Shown piece by piece: positions 30,046 through 47,880 of a stretch of DNA of 64,000 bases (position 1 is the first letter of the stretch; every line of letters begins with the position of its first letter). The stretch covers positions 2,904,653-2,968,652 of the forward strand of contig OZ251457.1 in assembly GCA_965242565.1 (NCBI GenBank), written 5' to 3'. Made by a program: the position numbers and the translations under genes. The notes under the pieces were generated by a model. It was given only the letters and a program-made list of their open reading frames with translations, was not told where the DNA came from and ran no database searches. The DNA is from Dehalococcoidia bacterium. Lineage in GTDB: Bacteria; Chloroflexota; Dehalococcoidia; Bin125.

Positions 30046-31836
30046 CTATTCCTCAATCGGGCGCAGCACCATGTACTTCTCCAGCCATTCGACGATCTCG
30101 GGCGTGAGGTAGCGCTCCATGTTCGGGACTGCCGGATCTGGCACGCCCGCATGATTGAGAATGTAAAACGAGCAGAGCTCGGCGCTCAGCTCTCTGGGAC
30201 TGATGGAGTAGATGTTGCGGAAGATGCTGCCCCTTGGCAACACCCAGCTCCAGCCATTCGAGTGCCGCCGGAAGCCGACGAGCTTGATGAACTCCTGCGC
30301 CGCATCGGGCATGTGCTCGATCGCACGCGCGTAGATCCAACCTCTTTCCACCCACCCCAAAGACGGATGGTCAAACACGACCGGCCGGCCGGGCCTGTCT
30401 TGCTGAACGTCATAGTAGTTTTGCTGCCCATGGCACAGTTCGTGCGCGTCGAGGCTGGGACTTAGCAAGTGTTCCCCGCGCTGCTGGTAGACTCGATGTG
30501 CCGGTGATCCTTCCTCGGCATTGTGAGTGATGACAGGAAGTACTTGTAGGAGCAGGCCGCTGTCGCCGGTCGAATGGTATAGACCCCCCCCAAAGCCGCG
30601 GCCTCCGGGGACTATCTGTCTGACGATGCACAGGTGAGGCAGTACAGGAAGCAGCTGAGTTACCGCATGCTGCACATCCGGATGGTATGTCTGGGCGCAT
30701 GGCGCGTCGTCATCGAATATCCGGAATTCTGGGTTGAAGCGACGTCGATCTCGTGTTTCCGCCCAGGACAGGCACTGCCGGCCGGCGTCGATTGTTCCTG
30801 TGAGCTGGTCGTAGGTGCAAATGTTGATGCAGTCCGCCCAGAGTGTGCCGGCCGGAACAAACTCCGCGTAGTCGTCGGCGAACTGCTGAATCAGCACGGC
30901 TCCCACATTGTATTGGTTGTAAGCGCGCCAGCCGTCATCATGGAGGATGATCGTGTTCGCCATACAGCCCATGGTGGCCAGTCGTGCTTTCAGGTGATAG
31001 AGCGAGCCGCCGCCGTATTGGACCGGGAAGAGTCGGTCGTATTCGTCGGGGATCTCGGCGATGACCTGAGTTGGTTGGAGTGCGGCCCCGATCGTCGGGT
31101 CGGTTGCGGTCGGGTCGTTGAGAACCTCTCGCAGGTCAACGCAGTCGGCCCAAAGCGCGCCGGCGGGCGCGGAGCGTGCGTAGGTCTCGACGAATTGCCG
31201 ATTCTGAGCCGCCGGAACGCTAAATCGACTGTACGCGCTCCGCCGGTCATCGTTTACCACGATGATGTCGGCGATGCAGCCCGCGATGGCCAGGCGGAGA
31301 TACAGGTCGTACAGAGAGCCGCCGGTCCACCGGAATGGAAAGAACTGGTCGTGCTCGCCCGGAATGTCGGCGATGATGGGGCGGTTCTCCGGCTCGAGTC
31401 CATGGCTGGCGGGCGGCGGGTCGCCAAGCCGGCTGGTCAGGTCCGCGCAGTTTACCCAGAGTGGTCCCGACGGCACGAAACTCCCGTAGGTTTCGATGAA
31501 CGGTGAGTTTATCGCAGCGGGAACGTCGAAGTGGTTGTAGCCGTGCCACCGGCCGCCGTCGTAGAGCCAGATCGTGTTGGCGATGCAGCCGCGCACGGCG
31601 AGCTGCGCGCGGAGCTGCCGGAGAGAGCCGCCGCTCCATTGAACCGCAAAGAAATGCCCGTAGTCGTCGGGAATGGCGGCGACAAGCTCGATCGGTTGTC
31701 CCGATCTGTTGTGTGCTTCGTCGCCGGACTCTGCCTGTTCGCCGTCGTCCGCGGCCGCTGAACCAACGCCGATCAACAGCGCCGCCAGCAAGGACGCGGC
31801 CAGGATCAGCGCACGAGTCACACTCTGCACACACAT
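30046..31836 (-). CDS. secreted protein with three tandem ~95-aa repeats and a C-terminal HExxH (HELCH) putative zinc-peptidase-like domain
   Basis: Signal peptide LILAASLLAALLIGVGSAAA. Three copies of IPDxY..F(F/P)..(W/Y)xGGSL..L...LA..GC(I/M)ANTI.L.D.GRW..YN.F.VPAA.N..F.ETY...VP.G.LW..C.DL. A C-terminal HELCHGQQNYYD is also present. Confidence 0.65.
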   Translation of the reverse strand: MCVQSVTRALILAASLLAALLIGVGSAAADDGEQAESGDEAHNRSGQPIELVAAIPDDYGHFFAVQWSGGSLRQLRAQLAVRGCIANTIWLYDGGRWHGYNHFDVPAAINSPFIETYGSFVPSGPLWVNCADLTSRLGDPPPASHGLEPENRPIIADIPGEHDQFFPFRWTGGSLYDLYLRLAIAGCIADIIVVNDDRRSAYSRFSVPAAQNRQFVETYARSAPAGALWADCVDLREVLNDPTATDPTIGAALQPTQVIAEIPDEYDRLFPVQYGGGSLYHLKARLATMGCMANTIILHDDGWRAYNQYNVGAVLIQQFADDYAEFVPAGTLWADCINICTYDQLTGTIDAGRQCLSWAETRDRRRFNPEFRIFDDDAPCAQTYHPDVQHAVTQLLPVLPHLCIVRQIVPGGRGFGGGLYHSTGDSGLLLQVLPVITHNAEEGSPAHRVYQQRGEHLLSPSLDAHELCHGQQNYYDVQQDRPGRPVVFDHPSLGWVERGWIYARAIEHMPDAAQEFIKLVGFRRHSNGWSWVLPRGSIFRNIYSISPRELSAELCSFYILNHAGVPDPAVPNMERYLTPEIVEWLEKYMVLRPIEE

Positions 31837-36215: not shown

Positions 36216-38675
36216 TCACTCCGCGTGGACTCCGTTTGCCCTGCCCTCGGACCCTTCCGGCATCGCGCCCGATGCCGGGATTTCCCAACCGACAAGGAGC
36301 ATGCGGTGCCAGCGCAGTACCGAACCGTCGCGCACCTCAAATGCCAGATAGGTTGCGTTTGAGGAACCTTCGAGCGGCTGGGGGCAGATCGCTGTGAACG
36401 AGTTCGCAGACAACGAACTGCGCGACGGAGACTCCAAATCGCGCGCCGTATATGGCGGTAGACCGCCGAGCGCACTCCAGAGCACTTCGACTTCCTCCCC
36501 GGGCGTGCAATTGGACGCTGCGGTTGCCGCGGAGGCGAGGAATGTATTCGGAAATGGAGGATCTTCGGTGATGGTGAGAAGCACCGGAACAGCGGCCGAG
36601 CGCCGAGGATCGCCGCTATCGGCTGCTAGAACCCAGACGGTCTGCTGCCCTGCCTCTGGCTGACACGTTACCCAAGCCGCGCCTTTGCGCGGCAGCAGGC
36701 CGTCGACTCCTTGCACTGCAACGAGATAAGGCGCTGTCGCGTCTTCTTGGATGCCCCAGGCGATCATCGCTCGCCCTCCCGGTTTGCAGAAACCCGACGG
36801 TTGTGGCACTGCCCACAGGTCGAGGCGCTCTTCGCCGCCGAATGCAGAAAGCACAGCAAAAGAAACATCTCCGCTGGCCTCTTGAGGCGGATCACTGTTG
36901 TCCTGGGCGCTGAGGTGGATGGTCCTGTCCCCAACCTCGTCGTCGCCGCACTCTACTGGGAACAGGCGATCCTCTGCCTCCATGCGTCCGTAACTCCGCG
37001 GCCCGTGGAGCCCTCCCATCCAGTGCCATCCGTCGCCGTAGAGGTTGGTGCCATCAGCAGTCACAGTATTTGGCGCCCAGAAACCGCCGCTGATGCTCAG
37101 GCGCAAGTTGACCGCACCGCCTGCCATAGTGCCGAGCAGCCTGCCGTCGTACAAGTCCATCGTGTTGTGAACGACTGGCGAACCAGCAACACAGCTTGGA
37201 GGATCTGCGTAGCCCGCGATTGTCAAAGGCGCGAGCTGATCGCGATGCTCCGGCGGCAGTTCAGGAGGACGCCCGATGGAAGCAAGGAGCGCGTCGATTT
37301 GGGCGTGAATTGGATGTGACGGCGGCAGGTCCTCTGTGCAGTCGGACTCGTATACCTTCGCACAGTCGAGGCCGCCGGTGCGACGCCAGCCCTCAGTGCC
37401 GGTTTCGATCCCGATCGAGACAAATGCTCCCGCCACACCTTCCCTGAGGCTGAAGTGCTGTTGATCTTCGCAGTGCCCGCTGCCATCGCAGGCGATACCT
37501 CCCAGTCCCTCATCCCGCACAGCCGCAGTGGGTGGAATGGTAATCAGAAGACCTGCTGAGTCGTAGAGGTAGAGGCGATAGGTCTCGCCGTTCGTAAGTT
37601 GGCGGGCTGCGTGTGCGTCTGCGATGGAGTAGATGTACGCCATGTCCGACGCGACATTGCCCTCAGCGTCGATTACTGTGCCATGGACGATTTGCAGGCC
37701 TGAGTCCGCGTATCGGCCTGTCAGCTCGCCGCATTGCACGTCGACACTACCGTTTGTGGCCTCGAACTCGCGACCGTTGATGATAACGCGATACGGCCCT
37801 GAAGCGCCCGATATCAACCATGCCACCGGAACGTCGCGAGTGGCAGCGCCACCCTGAGGCTCTGGATCTGTAGGTTGATCGCAGATCGCCGGCGCAACCA
37901 GTTTGAGTGTCAACTTTGGATCGTCGGTGTTGGCGATTCCGGGCGGCAAGGCGGCCAGTTCGGGCAGGCGACCAACGGACGCGACCAAGTCGTCAAGCGC
38001 GGCGTTGTATAGTGTCGCAATGCTGTGCGGGAGATGTTTGGCGACCTGCCGTCGCGCCTCGCGGCCGTCTGCCCGAGAGAACCAGATCACCGTTCCACCA
38101 CTGATGGCTTGGTCTGTCCAAGATCCGGTGTGCAAGACAGTCGCTACGTTATCGGGCCCGGTAGGGCTGGAGAGGTGCCGTCGCCGGTCGCCCAGGTACA
38201 GCTCTGGATCGTCGGGCATCGTCATGAGGACGCCGTAAACGCGATATGTGCGCCCTCTAGTCAAGCGTTGGTCGCGACGATTGTGAAATCGCTCAGCTGT
38301 CACAACGCGCACAGCGTACACAGGCTTGATTGCCGTCGCAGTACGCCCTTGCGCGTCAATCACACGCGCTTGAATCGTCATTACGCCAGAATCGACTTCA
38401 TCGCCCCACCAGACGCCGCAGAGCAGATCGGCTACCCCTTCGGCCTCGTCCGAGAGCGTGTTGCCGACAGCGACGCGGTAAGGCGGAGTTCCGCCAGTGA
38501 CTTCCCACGCCACATCAAGCGTCGGCATCACTTCACCGTCGTCGAAATCAGCCTCGCACATCATGGGCGCGGTGAGCTCGATGCGAAGCGGCGCCGCCGC
38601 GCTCGCGGTGGCCCAGCCCACCACCGCCGCCAAACCGAGGACGCACAGCAGAGCAGCGATCACCGCGCGCTTCAT
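36216..38675 (-). CDS. large secreted protein with He_PIG-type putative Ig-like domains
   Basis: Signal peptide MKRAVIAALLCVLGLAAVVGWATASAAA. Recurring GG(T/S)xPY motifs (TGGTPPYRV, SGASGPYRV, LGGLPPYTA). Lower GC than neighbours. Confidence 0.6.
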   Translation of the reverse strand: MKRAVIAALLCVLGLAAVVGWATASAAAPLRIELTAPMMCEADFDDGEVMPTLDVAWEVTGGTPPYRVAVGNTLSDEAEGVADLLCGVWWGDEVDSGVMTIQARVIDAQGRTATAIKPVYAVRVVTAERFHNRRDQRLTRGRTYRVYGVLMTMPDDPELYLGDRRRHLSSPTGPDNVATVLHTGSWTDQAISGGTVIWFSRADGREARRQVAKHLPHSIATLYNAALDDLVASVGRLPELAALPPGIANTDDPKLTLKLVAPAICDQPTDPEPQGGAATRDVPVAWLISGASGPYRVIINGREFEATNGSVDVQCGELTGRYADSGLQIVHGTVIDAEGNVASDMAYIYSIADAHAARQLTNGETYRLYLYDSAGLLITIPPTAAVRDEGLGGIACDGSGHCEDQQHFSLREGVAGAFVSIGIETGTEGWRRTGGLDCAKVYESDCTEDLPPSHPIHAQIDALLASIGRPPELPPEHRDQLAPLTIAGYADPPSCVAGSPVVHNTMDLYDGRLLGTMAGGAVNLRLSISGGFWAPNTVTADGTNLYGDGWHWMGGLHGPRSYGRMEAEDRLFPVECGDDEVGDRTIHLSAQDNSDPPQEASGDVSFAVLSAFGGEERLDLWAVPQPSGFCKPGGRAMIAWGIQEDATAPYLVAVQGVDGLLPRKGAAWVTCQPEAGQQTVWVLAADSGDPRRSAAVPVLLTITEDPPFPNTFLASAATAASNCTPGEEVEVLWSALGGLPPYTARDLESPSRSSLSANSFTAICPQPLEGSSNATYLAFEVRDGSVLRWHRMLLVGWEIPASGAMPEGSEGRANGVHAE

Positions 38676-39892: not shown

Positions 39893-42800
39893 ATGGCCAT
39901 CAACCACCAGGCGATCAGCGAGGACAACACGGGCCGATACGGGACCGACATCGCGGACTACGGCCCGGTGCTGCTCACGAATCCCTACGCTAAGCGAACT
40001 CACTTCGTCTTTGAGCTGATGCAGAACACGGAAGACGCCCTCCGCCGCTGCGCGAACCCCAAGTCGCGCGCCGTGAGGTTCGAGATCGGCGAATCCTCGC
40101 TGGTCGTGCGGCATTTTGGCGAGCCGTTCACAGAGGACGATGTGCGGAGCATCTGCGCGCTCGCCAAGAGCACCAAAAAGACGACGGACATCGGCCGCTT
40201 CGGCATCGGCTTCAAATCCGTCTATGCCTGGACCAACCGCCCCGAGATCCACTCCGGCGGCGAGCACTTCGCCATCGAGAACTATGTTCACCCGACACCG
40301 ACAGCCGAGATCGTCAGCGAACCTGACGAGACGGTGATCGTCATCCCCTTCAAGGACAAGATGGCCGGCTCCCGCGGTGAGATCGTCAAAGCCTTGCTAA
40401 GCGACAGCGGCAGCGCCCTGCTGTTTCTCCGCGAGATCGAGGAGATCGAGTGGGGCACCGACGGCGAGTCATCGGGCCACTATCTGCGCGAGCGAAAGCC
40501 GCTCGACAACGATGTGCATGTCGTGACAATCGTCGGCAAGGACGGCTCGGCGGAAACGGAGTCATCGTGGCTCGTGTTTTCCGAGCCGGTGGAGCACGAC
40601 GGAACGCGCGTAGGGCATGTGGAGATCGCGTTCAACCATGTCGCCGCGTCCGGCGACGATCCGGCCCGCATCAAGCCGGTGCCCTCGTCGCCCTTGAGCG
40701 CCTACTTCCCTACCGCGCTGGAAACCCATTTGGGCTTCCTCATGCAAGGCCCCTACCGCACAACGCCCGCCAGGAACTACGTGCTGCCCAATGACGAGTG
40801 GAACATTGACCTCGTGACGCAGACCGCAGCGCTGCTCAAGCGGACGCTGCCGTGGCTGCGCGACCACGGCTATCTCACCCCAGCCGGGCTCGAGTGCCTG
40901 CCGTTCGACCCGATCAGGTTCGACGACGCGAACATGTTCGCGCCATTGTTCAATGCGACGAAGGAAGCTCTCACGTCGGAGCCGTTGCTGCCGGCAGCCC
41001 TGCCTACCCATATCTCCGCGCGAGAAAGCGTGCTTGGTGGAACTACCACCCTGCGCGAGTTGTTCAGCGCCGAGCAGGTCACCGAGCTGCTGGGGTCGAC
41101 GGAAAGACTCGCATGGCTCGACGCACAGATCACGCGAGCTCGGACTCCGAACCTGCACAACTATCTTCATGGCGTACTTGACGTGCATGAGGTTGATGGC
41201 GTCGGCACGATCGTGCGGAGGCTGGACCGATCATTTCTGGAGCAGCAAACGGACGAGTGGATGCGTGCGCTGTACACGGCGCTCAAGGACCAAACGACGA
41301 TGCAGAGGCAGGAGTGGTTCGCCGCAATTCCGGTCGTTCGCTTGGAGGACGGGACCCATGTCCGGGCGCACGCAGGAGAAGCACCCGCAGCATACCTGCC
41401 CACATCGGCGGAAACAGGCTATCCCACAGTGCGGCGGGCAGTTTGCGACACGGATGACGCTCGCGGGTTCTTGGAGGAGATCGGCCTCCGCGAGCCCGAT
41501 CCAATCGACGACGTGATCGACAATGTCTTGCCAGCCTATGCGGACGGAACGGCGCCCGTCGATGACGAAGGACGATACGCTAATGACCTCCAGCGCCTCG
41601 TGGCTGCTTATCAGGCAGGGTCGACAAATCGGCGGCAGGACCTGGCGAGAAAATTGCGTCGCACGCCGTTCGTGAAGGCTACTGACGCTGAGACTGGTGG
41701 GGTCGCATACGTCAGGCCGACAACGGCGTATGCCCCAACCAGGGAGTTGCGAGCACTGTTCAACGGTGTTCTCGGCGTGTCGTTTCTCGATCCTTCGATG
41801 CGGTATTTCGACGATGCCGACGTCAAGGCAATGCTCGAAGCGTGCGGCGTATCGGCGAGGCTGCGAGCCAGGCGCGTCGTCTACGATAACAATACGCCGC
41901 CTGATCAATGGAAGAAGCTGGCGAACGACGTGCAACTACCGTACTCGACTCGAGAACGTCGAGTAGAAGATCGGGACCTTCGGGGGCTTTCAGCACTGCT
42001 TAAGACGCTCCCGAATCTCAACCAAGAGCGTCAAAACGAAATTGCACCAACGCTATGGGCATGCCTCGGCGATCTCGCCGCACACACCAACAACGCATCA
42101 TTCGACGGTATAGACCGCTACTTCTACCGTACAGCACAAGTCAAGCGGTTCCCTGCACAGTTCATCAGGGCATTGAATGCCGAGCATTGGGTGCCGACTG
42201 ATGACGGCCGACTGGCAAAGCCTGAAGAGGTCGTGTTCGAGTCGCTCGGATGGGTACCCAATCCATTCCTGGAAGAGCGGATTCAGTTCAAGGAGATCGC
42301 TGCACCTCCGATCGTTACACTGGCCGAACAGGCCGATGTCGATGTGGGGGCGCTCGCGTTGCTCAAGGAACATGGGGTTACCCAGGACGACCTGAAAGAG
42401 ATGCTGGACCGAAGGCGAGATGTCGAGCGAGAAGCTCAGACGGAGCCGGAGCGTCAGACGCCCGCTCGCACTGGCGGCTCACGCAGGGAATTCCGTTCCT
42501 ACGTGGCTGCTGAGCGCACGCGCGAGATCGCCGACGGGAGCGTCGAACAGGAGAGGCGGCTGCAGCTCGAGGAGCTTGCCATCCAGCACATTGAGGCTCA
42601 CGAGTCGGAGTGGACTCGAACGGAGCAGAACAACCCCGGCTTTGACCTCTACCAAACCAACGCCGACGGGGGGACCGTGAAGTGGTGCGAGGTCAAGTCG
42701 CTCAGCGGCGCGTGGGGAGATCGTCCCGTCACGATGTCGCACACACAGTTCGAGCTCGCACAAGACAAGGGCGACGCCTATTGGCTCTACGTCGTGGAGC

Positions 42801-42916
42801 ATGCGGGCGACCCGGAACGGATCCGGCTCCTGCGCATCCAGGACCCCGCCGGGCAGGCGCGAACGTTCACCTTCGATCAGGGCTGGGCGGAAGTCGCGGT
42901 CGGTGAGGCCGAGTGA
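39893..42916 (+). CDS. 1007-aa fusion of an N-terminal GHKL-type (sacsin/MORC-like) ATPase with a C-terminal DUF3883-like (predicted REase-fold) domain
   Basis: The Bergerat N-box-like FVFELMQNTEDA lies at the N-terminus and the G-box-like RFGIGFKSVY follows it. The C-terminal ~100 aa (GFDLYQTNADGGTVKWCEVKSL...YWLYVVEHAG) resembles DUF3883. Lower GC than flanks. Confidence 0.7.
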   Translation: MAINHQAISEDNTGRYGTDIADYGPVLLTNPYAKRTHFVFELMQNTEDALRRCANPKSRAVRFEIGESSLVVRHFGEPFTEDDVRSICALAKSTKKTTDIGRFGIGFKSVYAWTNRPEIHSGGEHFAIENYVHPTPTAEIVSEPDETVIVIPFKDKMAGSRGEIVKALLSDSGSALLFLREIEEIEWGTDGESSGHYLRERKPLDNDVHVVTIVGKDGSAETESSWLVFSEPVEHDGTRVGHVEIAFNHVAASGDDPARIKPVPSSPLSAYFPTALETHLGFLMQGPYRTTPARNYVLPNDEWNIDLVTQTAALLKRTLPWLRDHGYLTPAGLECLPFDPIRFDDANMFAPLFNATKEALTSEPLLPAALPTHISARESVLGGTTTLRELFSAEQVTELLGSTERLAWLDAQITRARTPNLHNYLHGVLDVHEVDGVGTIVRRLDRSFLEQQTDEWMRALYTALKDQTTMQRQEWFAAIPVVRLEDGTHVRAHAGEAPAAYLPTSAETGYPTVRRAVCDTDDARGFLEEIGLREPDPIDDVIDNVLPAYADGTAPVDDEGRYANDLQRLVAAYQAGSTNRRQDLARKLRRTPFVKATDAETGGVAYVRPTTAYAPTRELRALFNGVLGVSFLDPSMRYFDDADVKAMLEACGVSARLRARRVVYDNNTPPDQWKKLANDVQLPYSTRERRVEDRDLRGLSALLKTLPNLNQERQNEIAPTLWACLGDLAAHTNNASFDGIDRYFYRTAQVKRFPAQFIRALNAEHWVPTDDGRLAKPEEVVFESLGWVPNPFLEERIQFKEIAAPPIVTLAEQADVDVGALALLKEHGVTQDDLKEMLDRRRDVEREAQTEPERQTPARTGGSRREFRSYVAAERTREIADGSVEQERRLQLEELAIQHIEAHESEWTRTEQNNPGFDLYQTNADGGTVKWCEVKSLSGAWGDRPVTMSHTQFELAQDKGDAYWLYVVEHAGDPERIRLLRIQDPAGQARTFTFDQGWAEVAVGEAE

Positions 42917-44369: not shown

Positions 44370-44470
44370 CCTAACCCCCCGTCACACCCGAGCCCCCCCC
44401 CGTCAGCCCGCGCCCGCCACCGTCATACCCGCGCTTGCCGCGGGTATCTCGCCGTGTTCAGCAACCAACG
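44370..44470. repeat. dispersed palindromic repeat family member
   Basis: Reads ccgtcacacccg...ccgtcagcccgcg...ccgtcatacccgcgcttgccgcgggtatctcgccgtg. Confidence 0.75.
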
Positions 44471-44472
44471 CC

Positions 44473-45240
44473 CTACCCGTTGACATCGCAGCCCAGAAAA
44501 ACCCGCCCGCGCCGTCGGCACGCCTCCAGCACCGAAAACGTGCCGGCCGCCGGGTCCACCACCAGGTCGCCCGGATTGGTCACCGCCTCGATCAGCGCCG
44601 CCTGTAGCTCCACCGGCTTCGGGTGGACTCCCCCCTGCTTCGGGACCCGCTCGGTCCACACATCCGGGATCGTGTGAACCTTCCAGACGCCCTTGGCCTT
44701 GCGGGGCGATTTCTGTAGGACCACAAGGTGCTCCGACTTGCGGCGCGAGCGATAGCCCATGCCGATCTTGTCCTTGTCCCACGTGATCATGTCCACGGTT
44801 TCCAGCGAGGTGCCGCTGAGCCAGTCCCGGAAGCCGGTACAGAGGTGAAATTTGTCCATCCAGAGGAAGAGGTGGCCGCTGGGGATCAGGATGCGATCCA
44901 GCTCGCCGATGAACTCCGCGATGGTGTCGTCATTCATCTGCGGCAGCCCGGCGCGACCCTGCCCTCGGTTCTCGCCCTCGTTGCCGTACGCCAGGTGATC
45001 GAGCACACCGCGGTATTGCGGGTCGAAGAACGCCGCCGCGACCGCGCTCTCCGGCAATTGCGCGAGCAAATCGCGCCCATCCATCTGCAGCCGCGTATTG
45101 GGCGCCAGCTCCGCCGGCAGCGCCAACGCCGGCTGCTCAAGCGCGCGCTCACTGGAGAAGACGGATGCGGAATTCGCCTCAGCGTCGTCGAACAGCGGAG
45201 CCGAAGCTTCGCCGAGCGCGACTGTTGAACGGCGTGCCAT
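44473..45240 (-). CDS. DNA methyltransferase (N4-cytosine or N6-adenine, beta-class: motif IV before motif I), apparently orphan
   Basis: Motif IV FFDPQYR is followed later by the SAM motif I VVDPAAGTFSV. No adjacent restriction endonuclease candidate is visible. Confidence 0.7.
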   Translation of the reverse strand: MARRSTVALGEASAPLFDDAEANSASVFSSERALEQPALALPAELAPNTRLQMDGRDLLAQLPESAVAAAFFDPQYRGVLDHLAYGNEGENRGQGRAGLPQMNDDTIAEFIGELDRILIPSGHLFLWMDKFHLCTGFRDWLSGTSLETVDMITWDKDKIGMGYRSRRKSEHLVVLQKSPRKAKGVWKVHTIPDVWTERVPKQGGVHPKPVELQAALIEAVTNPGDLVVDPAAGTFSVLEACRRRGRVFLGCDVNG

Positions 45241-47454: not shown

Positions 47455-47579
47455 AGGGGTCCTCCGCTCAGTCAGAGCCGTGTGCGGCCGCCGTCAGACA
47501 GCCGGCGCGTTGCGCGCAAGCTAGCGCCTGCAACCCCAGCCTGTCAAACAGCCCCGGTGGACGCAGCTCGCGCCCACCT

Positions 47580-47880
47580 CCGCCATCCCCGTCCCGCTCC
47601 ATCACTCCTGCCTCGTTCCGTCACTCCCGCCCCGCGCCGTCACTCCCGCCCTACTCCGTCATACCCGCGCTTGCCGCGGGTATCTCGCCGCCAACGCCAG
47701 GGGCCCCATTCCTCCGTCACTCCCGCCCTACTCCGTCATACCCGCGCTTGCCGCGGGTATCTCGCCGCCAACGCCAGGGGCCCCATTCCTCCGTCATTCC
47801 CGCCCCCTCCTCCCGTCATTCCCGCCCCCGAGCGGGAATCAGCCCCATCCCACCGCAGCCCTCCCCCAACCCCCTTCCGT
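47580..47880. repeat. ~300-bp array of the dispersed repeat family: two tandem ~66-bp units (each ccctactccgtcatacccgcgcttgccgcgggtatctcgccgccaacgccaggggccccattcctccgtcactcccg) flanked by further CCGTCAYTCCCGC sub-repeats
   Basis: A direct tandem duplication is visible at 47640..47770. No unique spacers are present, so this is not a CRISPR array. Confidence 0.8.

Follow-up and report, generated by a model that had tools for sequence, protein, structure and literature searches.

Does a long, solitary gene lying between metabolic genes in a Dehalococcoidia bacterium encode an anti-phage protein that works on its own, a part left over from a larger restriction-like system, or a factor of the chromosome's own upkeep? 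The gene occupies positions 39893-42916 on the forward strand of the window, i. e. the whole 64,000-nucleotide stretch that was analysed; its reading frame is unbroken, its GC content lies below that of the adjoining genes, and 118 full-length homologues share 43-79% identity with its product. We favour the first answer with a probability of about 0.7: the protein would be a stand-alone, short-form Tiamat (TmtA) anti-phage protein, carried as cargo of a variable slot, acting by the mechanism proposed below and diversified into different alleles by an arms race. The gene and the parts of its predicted product are as follows.

39893..42916, forward strand: TmtA-like (Tiamat family) gene, 1007 aa, stop codon within the coordinates
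39893..40432, forward strand: GHKL (Bergerat-fold) ATP-binding domain, residues 1-180
40001-40039, forward strand: N-box E41/N45/D48, inside the GHKL domain
40190-40219, forward strand: G-box G101/G104/G106/K108, inside the GHKL domain
40433..40792, forward strand: transducer-like domain, beta-rich, residues 181-300
40793..42424, forward strand: middle region, residues 301-844, alpha/beta with a confidently predicted fold
41816..42175, forward strand: hypervariable part at the heart of the middle region (residues 642-761), a candidate module for specificity
42425..42535, forward strand: disordered linker, residues 845-881, pLDDT <50
42536..42901, forward strand: NOV_C / DUF3883 PD-(D/E)xK nuclease domain, residues 882-1003
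42644-42646, forward strand: predicted catalytic D918 in the NOV_C domain
42689-42697, forward strand: predicted catalytic E933-x-K935 in the NOV_C domain

The first-pass annotation had described the product as a MORC/sacsin-like GHKL ATPase fused to a DUF3883-like nuclease, and the fusion itself was borne out by Pfam matches to SACS (PF25794), above the gathering threshold, and to NOV_C (E 4.4e-11). The MORC half of the label holds only at the level of the GHKL plus transducer fold: sequence profiles place the GHKL domain in the sacsin type and not with MORC, and the N-terminal domain matches sacsin SR1 in structure. In eukaryotes, sacsin is a neuronal, chaperone-like protein that combines DnaJ and HEPN domains with three sacsin repeat regions (SRRs), and plant NO VEIN is a nuclear protein of ~2700 aa. 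The N-box, the G-box and the D918/E933/K935 triad are all invariant across the 118 homologues, as is the G2 box (GxxGxG, residues 101-106). The G1-box position, canonically an adenine-binding Asp, is His74 here and Asn or His in sacsin-type relatives; because of this replacement, ATP binding by the protein cannot be taken for granted. The transducer-like domain ends in a strongly conserved loop, GFLxQGPYRTTPxRDN (residues 283-297), in which R294 is invariant. For the middle region, comparison with PDB and Pfam returned no recognisable relative. The linker is 64-77 residues longer in most homologues, more than 30% of which have insertions that follow positions 851 and 861.

What places this architecture among known defence systems is its match to the TmtA models of PADLOC. 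Nine of them match the window protein with E values between 1.3e-69 and 5.7e-13 (matches judged by E value alone), and the sole further match is PDC-S36 at E 0.019. The models align collinearly with residues 32-782 and 32-853, so that the middle region falls on the middle of the models, and PDLC03969 aligns with residues 843-1005. According to the tables of Millman et al. (2022), Tiamat is a single-gene system consisting of TmtA; the B. cereus FORC_005 protein (gene 2641244160; 1590 aa; 'Hsp90, DUF3684, DUF3883') is marked there as verified, and a second Tiamat tested, a 1429-aa protein from Enterobacter, carries an 'x' instead of the 'v' for verified. By hhalign, the window protein matches the clade that holds the verified B. 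cereus protein over residues 39-378 with 99.4% probability (E 4.7e-21); in the ATPase core, the direct identity is 25% over 87 residues, the B. cereus sequence compared being the first ~400 residues from that paper's supplement, and the end-to-end comparison runs through the PADLOC model coordinates. A database search with the same ~400 residues returned only fragments of at most 680 aa.

Both proteins have an N-terminal Hsp90/sacsin-type GHKL ATPase, a long middle region and a C-terminal DUF3883 nuclease, and the window gene is genetically solo, in the window as well as in its own clade. They differ in length (1007 aa vs 1590 aa). In the TmtA models, ~400-500 extra positions separate the middle region from the nuclease, where the window protein has the 37-residue disordered linker. 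DUF3684, which is annotated in the middle region of the verified TmtA, has no match in the window protein in a Pfam scan at E<=1. By sequence, the window protein is a short (~1000-1100 aa) and distant member of the TmtA family, which comprises 6,666 representative clusters. The gene is thus a member of a single-gene anti-phage family that has been catalogued before, and is a known system rather than a new one. The TmtA models and the verified single-gene Tiamat within the family support the earlier proposal of a plausible one-gene immunity protein; the accompanying claim that such a protein had not been characterised does not hold, since the architecture is that of Tiamat (Millman et al. 2022), a NOV_C nickase is known in HmaA, and single-gene defence by a GHKL-nuclease protein is known from VcSduA. 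Every defence-system catalogue has Tiamat, though the literature searched describes no mechanism for it, and a 2026 review files it among the largely uncharacterised systems.

The chromosomal setting bears on the view that the gene is a domesticated housekeeping factor, e. g. a MutL/MORC-like ATPase-nuclease for repair or chromosome organisation at a fixed position. Six related Dehalococcoidia-like genomes, with flanks diverged to about 84%, have the gene order LLM / TmtA / 184-aa gene / SDR in common, and the gene is co-directional with two metabolic genes, 67 nt upstream of them and with no predicted terminator between; the promoter and terminator scan around it gave counts equal to the shuffle level. 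Around the gene we found no tRNA, Rfam match, bracketing direct or inverted repeats or flanking integrase, and a recognisable island or transposon insertion was therefore rejected. This constant position and the lack of mobility marks would suit a housekeeping role, as would the mostly housekeeping neighbours of solo relatives and the GHKL plus transducer fold, which MutL and topoisomerases have as well. However, three more distant relatives (L087, L088 and L089), whose flanks are orthologous at 68-76% identity, have either an empty slot with 97 nt between the flanks (L088) or other genes in its place (L087 and L089). In our reading TmtA is accessory cargo of an uncultured Dehalococcoidia-like bacterium, and its slot amid the conserved metabolic genes is a variable one. 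The first-pass annotation had regarded homologues that are consistently embedded in housekeeping operons as evidence against defence; in the six genomes the gene does have identical metabolic neighbours on either side, but on inspection the objection fails, because the slot is variable in the three relatives and the gene evolves unlike its neighbours. A search for plasmid or phage carriage gave only distant matches (<=29% identity), to one phage-like contig and to 23 plasmids out of 72,556, so that close relatives are undocumented on sequenced mobile replicons.

How differently the gene evolves is seen in three genome pairs whose flanks are 96-99.6% identical while their TmtA proteins share only 58-71%. 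The trees of TmtA and of the flanks are incongruent, and the alleles are intragenic mosaics that combine shared blocks (dS 0.05-0.18) with divergent ones (dS from about 1 to saturated); this was seen in metagenome assemblies, one of them at only 2x coverage, although one of the shared blocks extends over two separate samples. Synonymous sites near or at saturation indicate that the divergent blocks were imported by recombination, and with a flank dS of ~0.1 they are incompatible with rapid evolution in situ. Pooled dN/dS is 0.49 for TmtA vs 0.07 for the flanks, a seven-fold difference (Fisher p 6e-8). The low GC content noted from the window alone recurs in all six genomes, with GC3 values of 0.67-0.75 in TmtA vs 0.86-0.95 in the flanks. 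Residues 642-761 are among the most divergent stretches (20-51% identity in closely related allele pairs) and have the highest entropy family-wide once the linker is set aside, and the lowest GC3 in the gene (0.52) falls on residues 667-726. Three of the divergent alleles (L001, L003 and L084) come from one metagenome, ERZ26050812. The new finding here is that strains which are close relatives have recombined and strongly differing versions of TmtA in one variable chromosomal slot. Allele diversity produced by recombination among old versions is what would be expected in an arms race with phages. These mosaics, the elevated dN/dS, the persistently deviant GC3, the patchy phyletic distribution of TmtA-like relatives over many phyla and the fact that the PADLOC matches of note are to defence models only all speak against the housekeeping factor, which we regard as very improbable.

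The relatives in other phyla raise a second alternative, namely that the gene is an orphaned part from a restriction-like system of several genes, and either acts with partners encoded at a distance in the 3.2-Mb genome or is a remnant in decay. Among 80 species-level loci in other phyla, 32 have the TmtA-like gene beside type III R-M / UvrD-nuclease partners: at 26 loci at least two partners (a UvrD-helicase/PD-(D/E)xK nuclease, a type III-like Mod methyltransferase, a Res-like helicase-nuclease) adjoin it, and at six more there is one. Cultured carriers of the four-gene cluster include Rhodobacter capsulatus SP18 (L040) and Nitrosospira briensis Nsp8 (L066). The solo members in other phyla mostly lie among housekeeping genes and not in defence islands. 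Cluster-embedded genes are also among the closest species-representative relatives (44-45% identity), and the same possibility of an orphaned component has been raised for stand-alone paraMORC3 (Iyer et al. 2008, PMC2292703). However, tblastn of the partner clusters found no homologue of the UvrD-nuclease, Mod or Res partners in the 64-kb window, the sole match being between the Mod cluster and the orphan methyltransferase (26% identity over 120 residues). The nearby 255-aa DNA methyltransferase was rejected as cognate partner: it belongs to a separate variable slot, and of the six genomes with TmtA three lack it. Moreover, the gene is solo throughout the syntenic clade and in the members closest to it in the tree (L025, L049 and L070), the open reading frame is unbroken with all invariant residues kept in six of six syntenic genomes, and the verified B. 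cereus Tiamat is given as a single-gene system (Millman et al. 2022). An orphaned component is thus unlikely. A further group of relatives, linked to DrmD, keeps residues 1-853 and has NOV_C replaced by a Cys/His-rich tail without Pfam match; we read this tail as possibly HNH-like from its CxxC...NH...CxxH pattern. Two proteins of ~1550 aa (L055 and L072) were considered as long-form Tiamat and set aside, since the ~595 residues by which they are longer lie at the N-terminus and may reflect a naive choice of start codon.

For a mechanism, three known systems offer guidance. By analogy, the best working model on hand is VcSduA, a single protein of the GHKL-clamp-nuclease type whose defence needs the ATPase Glu and the nuclease Lys, and which protects at all MOIs, consistent with direct restriction (PMC12137116). 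VcSduA, paraMORC3 and Shedu type I-D resemble the window protein in uniting an N-terminal GHKL ATPase, a middle domain (clamp-like in VcSduA) and a C-terminal PD-(D/E)xK nuclease in one polypeptide. With K557 as its nuclease Lys, VcSduA appears to be considerably shorter, its GHKL domain is not of the sacsin type, and its nuclease belongs to DUF4263 (Shedu) instead of NOV_C; in the window protein, DUF4263 had no Pfam match and the Shedu models no PADLOC match. HmaA of the Hma system of Halomonas meridiana likewise ends in a NOV_C/DUF3883 PD-(D/E)xK domain whose D...ExK triad is conserved, and this domain nicks supercoiled DNA and is needed for anti-T4 defence (PMC11232893). HmaA is driven by an SF2 Snf2 helicase, whereas the window protein has a GHKL ATPase, and it is part of a proposed three-gene system. 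The prokaryotic MORC/paraMORC proteins, GHKL+S5 ATPases of restriction-modification operons (Iyer, Abhiman and Aravind 2008, PMC2292703), are comparable in that the GHKL domain goes with a second domain of transducer type and that relatives share operons with helicase-nucleases and type III-like Mod/Res; some members are fused to RE-fold nucleases and occur stand-alone. The window copy differs in having no R-M partners in the window, and the partners of its relatives include an SF1 UvrD-nuclease, whereas that study stresses SFII helicases; the word 'sacsin' occurs 0 times in it, and sacsin-type GHKLs are unmentioned.

We suggest that the stand-alone Tiamat protein works in four steps. The sacsin-type GHKL and transducer-like domains, whose fold and invariant residues are evident, would bind and hydrolyse ATP. 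ATP binding would lead to N-terminal dimerisation, as in Hsp90, MutL, GyrB and MORC, and the middle region of ~540 residues would thereby close around DNA as a clamp. To judge from the pattern of variation, residues ~642-761 may set the target, be it a feature of the invading DNA or a phage protein. Finally, the linker-tethered NOV_C nuclease would nick or cut the invader's DNA, as the activity of HmaA suggests. The DrmD-linked relatives, which keep the ATPase and middle part and have another tail in place of the nuclease, would fit such an effector logic and are counted in its favour. Since no methyltransferase travels with the gene, self would not be protected by modification, unlike in classical restriction-modification, and the diversity of alleles would be upheld through recombination among deeply diverged old versions.

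A variant of this mechanism, which concerns how the protein would tell self from non-self, is modification-dependent (type IV-like) restriction, in which the variable middle region would read modified phage bases and the nuclease would cut only such DNA. The PD-(D/E)xK fold match of the nuclease domain is generic, with similar scores for Hjc, PvuII and RecU, and the Pfam scan of the window protein detected no modified-base reader domain (SRA, YTH, DUF262 etc.). A methyltransferase is linked to many of the relatives, which argues against methylated DNA as the target in those cases. We consider this variant improbable.

The locus offers a natural experiment: six alleles with a common chassis and position differ by defined blocks, three of them occur in one metagenome, and the block differences point to where specificity may reside. 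It is tempting to speculate, though this is a tentative idea that we do not hold to be probable, that residues ~340-846, with their core at 642-761, are an exchangeable cassette that close relatives shuffle by homologous recombination so that strains living side by side in one community restrict different phages, on a chassis that is also used in R-M/UvrD or DrmD systems. If this is true, the cassette would play, without a methyltransferase, the part that swappable target-recognition domains play in type I restriction enzymes. The family occurs solo, in type III R-M/UvrD-nuclease clusters, and with another C-terminal tail beside DrmD-like helicases, and these varied contexts help to judge what the 'Tiamat' calls of automated tools actually mean.

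The gene encodes TmtA, the single protein of the Tiamat defence system (Millman et al. 2022), so it represents a known kind of system and is not countable as a new one.

39893-42916, forward strand: TmtA gene, an intact open reading frame of 1007 codons with an ATG start

Nine TmtA models of PADLOC match the protein with E-values from 1.3e-69 to 5.7e-13, and its sole non-TmtA match is PDC-S36 (E 0.019). The TmtA of B. cereus FORC_005, 1590 aa long and annotated as 'Hsp90, DUF3684, DUF3883', is marked as verified, and an Enterobacter homologue of 1429 aa carries an 'x' and not a 'v' (Millman et al. 2022, supplementary tables). Pairwise identity between the B. cereus protein and ours is low (25% over 87 residues); for residues 39-378, the profiles of the verified and the window clade match with E 4.7e-21 (probability 99.4%), and the published B. 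cereus fragment reaches no further. The PADLOC models are collinear with residues 32-853 and then jump to model positions of about 1340-1506 for residues 843-1005: about 400-500 positions that long-form TmtA proteins possess before the nuclease are thus absent here, and a short linker takes their place. The window protein is a new, rather distant short-form member of Tiamat. At E<=1e-3 the family comprises 6,666 representative clusters, of which 1,381 remain at E<=1e-30; most are 1000-1100 aa long, and they come from many bacterial phyla and some archaea. The first-pass annotation had regarded such a stand-alone protein as uncharacterised. This was mistaken for the phenotype and the parts, since Tiamat is verified (Millman et al. 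2022) and homologous parts have been tested in VcSduA and HmaA; it is correct for the mechanism, since a 2026 review still places Tiamat among 'largely uncharacterized' systems. A 2024 preprint merely groups it with single-gene PD-(D/E)xK systems.

The proposed architecture, a sacsin-type GHKL N-terminus and a DUF3883 C-terminus, was recovered by profile searches. In Pfam, SACS matches residues 65-123 (E 2.5e-12, exceeding the gathering score) and NOV_C, the present name of DUF3883, matches residues 893-977 (E 4.4e-11); the NCBIfam 'sacsin N-terminal ATP-binding-like domain' matches residues 37-120 (E 3.1e-22). The motifs quoted initially, FVFELMQNTEDA, RFGIGFKSVY and GFDLYQ...VVEHAG, correspond to residues 38-49, 102-111 and 916-972. 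From an alignment of 118 homologues, AlphaFold2 gave a confident model (mean pLDDT 87.9, pTM 0.65), in which residues 845-881 are disordered. Across 118 homologues of 43-79% identity, the N-box residues E41, Q44, N45, E47 and D48, the G-box residues G101, G104, G106 and K108, the nuclease residues E904, D918, E933, K935 and Q952 as well as G76 and R294 are invariant. Because the N-box, G-box and nuclease residues are so conserved, both the ATPase and the nuclease active site look intact. The canonical Asp of the DxGxG box is the one deviation: alignments show His74 in its place, and sacsin and the B. cereus TmtA both have Asn there.

GHKL-S5 'paraMORC' proteins have been described in restriction-modification (R-M) operons, and one of their families, often stand-alone, carries a restriction-endonuclease-fold nuclease at the C-terminus (Iyer, Abhiman and Aravind 2008). 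VcSduA of Vibrio cholerae, a single-protein defence system, has a clamp-like middle between its GHKL domain and its DUF4263 nuclease: the wild type protects at all MOIs, and the E27A and K557A mutants are inactive (PMC12137116). In HmaA, NOV_C is a nickase of supercoiled DNA, and neither nicking nor defence survives mutation of its conserved residues (D, K and two E; PMC11232893). As the most likely mechanism, we suggest that the GHKL ATPase of TmtA would work as an ATP-driven dimer, that the middle region may clamp or read DNA (or a phage factor), and that the tethered NOV_C nuclease would nick or cut the invader. The folds and the invariance of the catalytic residues are established, as are the activities that homologous parts have in other proteins; beyond these, we infer ATPase activity despite His74, dimerisation, a sensed target and the sparing of self DNA. 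As to discrimination, a modification-dependent enzyme is a sub-hypothesis that we consider quite improbable.

The neighbours of TmtA are metabolic: luciferase-like monooxygenases (LLM), an SDR, glyoxalases and, further upstream, an acyl-CoA dehydrogenase; no tRNA, Rfam element or bracketing repeat was found around the gene. For the dehydrogenase, those homologues that carry a name (64-66% identity) belong to Dehalococcoidia or Tepidiforma; the host is probably an uncultured member of the Chloroflexota, with a source contig of about 3.2 Mb. Such surroundings would suit a housekeeping repair factor, an explanation that we judge highly unlikely given the gene order in relatives. In L002, L003, L084, L085, L086 and the window (to which L001 is a near-identical counterpart), six related genomes in all, the LLM gene points away from TmtA, which is followed co-directionally by a 184-aa gene and, where the contig reaches, the SDR; the L084 contig stops within the 184-aa gene. 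In three more distant relatives, the LLM gene, a ~190-aa gene and the SDR are orthologous (68-76% identity) and TmtA is absent.

The TmtA slot in three relatives
L088, 7474-7570: empty, 97 nt
L087, 6301-7134: 277-aa protein with a weak DUF3800 match
L089, 5796-6610: two small overlapping genes (109 and 161 aa)

Since the slot is empty or otherwise filled despite the kept flanking genes, TmtA is accessory cargo of a variable slot, outside the metabolic operon; this also answers the concern that homologues might always reside in housekeeping operons. As the first-pass annotation had noticed, the GC content of the gene is lower than that of its three neighbours (0.618 versus 0.68-0.71; GC3 0.75 versus 0.91-0.95).

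Further variable genes and elements in the window
30046-31836, reverse strand: 596-aa ORF without a Pfam match, on a 1.8-kb segment absent from L001-L003
34100-36160, forward strand: RCC1-repeat protein, 686 aa, 13 RCC1_2 repeats, N-terminal hydrophobic stretch
36216-38675, reverse strand: 819-aa ORF of lower GC (0.61-0.64), predicted N-terminal hydrophobic segment
44473-45240, reverse strand: orphan type II-like N6/N4 DNA methyltransferase (PADLOC MTase_II, E 2.7e-82)
44401-44477, 47637-47713, 47714-47790, also 47579-47671: REP-like intergenic element

Genes similar in size to the 596-aa ORF occupy its position in L084 and L085. The RCC1-repeat protein is hypervariable (81% identity to its L001 and L003 counterparts versus 97-100% for adjacent genes), and more distant relatives have an N6/N4 DNA methyltransferase in its slot. 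The 819-aa ORF, without a match in Pfam or PADLOC, is limited to the window and L001 (absent from L002, L003, L084 and L085) and is therefore an insertion between the RCC1 and LLM genes. No nuclease partner was found near the methyltransferase, whose position is a third variable slot: L002 has a second SDR there, L085 two unknown genes, and L086 an IS481-type transposase with a 614-aa unknown. The REP-like element forms a perfect hairpin, ATACCCGCG-CTTG-CCGCGGGTAT, and also occurs in L002 and L003. One copy lies between the SDR and methyltransferase genes, an interval in which the window and L001 differ by about 50 nt, and a 77-nt tandem pair follows the second LLM gene, beside 19-nt periodic repeats.

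For other phyla, clustering of flank ORFs from 80 species-representative loci revealed three kinds of partner gene. One encodes a UvrD helicase fused to a PD-(D/E)xK nuclease, another a type III-like Mod methyltransferase that matches MTase_III of PADLOC (3.4e-124), and the last a helicase-endonuclease resembling Res; at least two of these genes are present at 26 loci and one at 6 further loci. The full four-gene cluster, in which the nuclease part of the fusion is Cas4-like, recurs in Proteobacteria, Acidobacteriota, Chloroflexota and others, in co-directional or divergent arrangement (L005:7140-17944, L010, L017, L019, L021, L040, L066 and others). Automated tools would probably split it into 'Tiamat' and 'type III R-M' calls. 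At 14 of the 80 loci, the TmtA-like protein is paired with a DrmD-like SNF2 helicase (PADLOC DrmD, 1.6e-116). DrmD-linked proteins (L034, L056, L057, L064, L068, L074-L080, L083; e.g. L074:9986-13219) match residues 1-853 only. Instead of NOV_C, their C-terminus is a conserved Cys/His tail, CQICG...NHFGNLLxLCGxH, in which a Pfam search recognised no domain and which looks HNH-like by eye, an apparent swap of the effector domain. The PADLOC matches of all context classes are to TmtA models only. A recurrent partner is absent at 34 loci, 9 of which have less than 8 kb on one side, so that it could be off-contig; around 25 of the solo loci, most neighbours have housekeeping roles and a few belong to R-M systems. 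These associations might suggest that the window gene is an orphaned R-M accessory. We regard this as unlikely: no homologues of the partner genes occur anywhere in the 64-kb window, and a rough NJ tree places the window clade, which is solo, beside solo Dehalococcoidia/Tepidiformaceae members, with R-M-linked and solo members intermingled elsewhere.

The alleles of TmtA have diverged far more than their flanks.

Identity of flanks and of TmtA in pairs of related genomes
Window and L003: flanks 96-99.6%, TmtA 58%
L003 and L084: flanks 97-99.5%, TmtA 61%
L085 and L086: flanks 98-99%, TmtA 71%

The allele nearest to that of the window (65%) belongs to L002, whose genome is the most distant among the six, and the TmtA and flank trees are therefore incongruent. 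The alleles are mosaics. Between the window and L084, residues 1-118 and 915-994 are 88-100% identical and residues 338-900 only 20-55%; between the window and L003, residues 99-337 (82-92%) and 855-934 (90-98%) are similar and residues 1-98 (52-65%) and 338-850 (12-60%) divergent. L003 and L085, from different samples and with flanks about 87% identical, share residues 41-197 at 87-95%. Between the window and L003, dS is 0.05-0.14 in the flanks and 0.05-0.18 in TmtA blocks 122-302 and 847-906, but ranges from about 1 to saturation in blocks 1-121 and 363-846; the divergent blocks were therefore imported by recombination from old alleles and do not reflect quick local change. Pooled dN/dS is 0.49 in co-ancestral TmtA blocks versus 0.07 in the flanks (Fisher p 6e-8). 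In all six genomes, the GC3 of TmtA (0.67-0.75) is below that of the flanks (0.86-0.95), with a minimum of 0.52 at residues 667-726, the most variable segment. Residues 642-761 are the most variable folded stretch family-wide and among the most divergent in allele pairs (20-51% identity, closely related pairs). A single metagenome, ERZ26050812, yields three divergent alleles. A caveat is that the sequences were assembled from metagenomes, in one case at 2x coverage; every ORF is nevertheless intact, and one shared block is common to two different samples. The variable cassette is a natural candidate for specificity, and the allelic mosaicism of TmtA offers a concrete handle on the unsolved mechanism of Tiamat.
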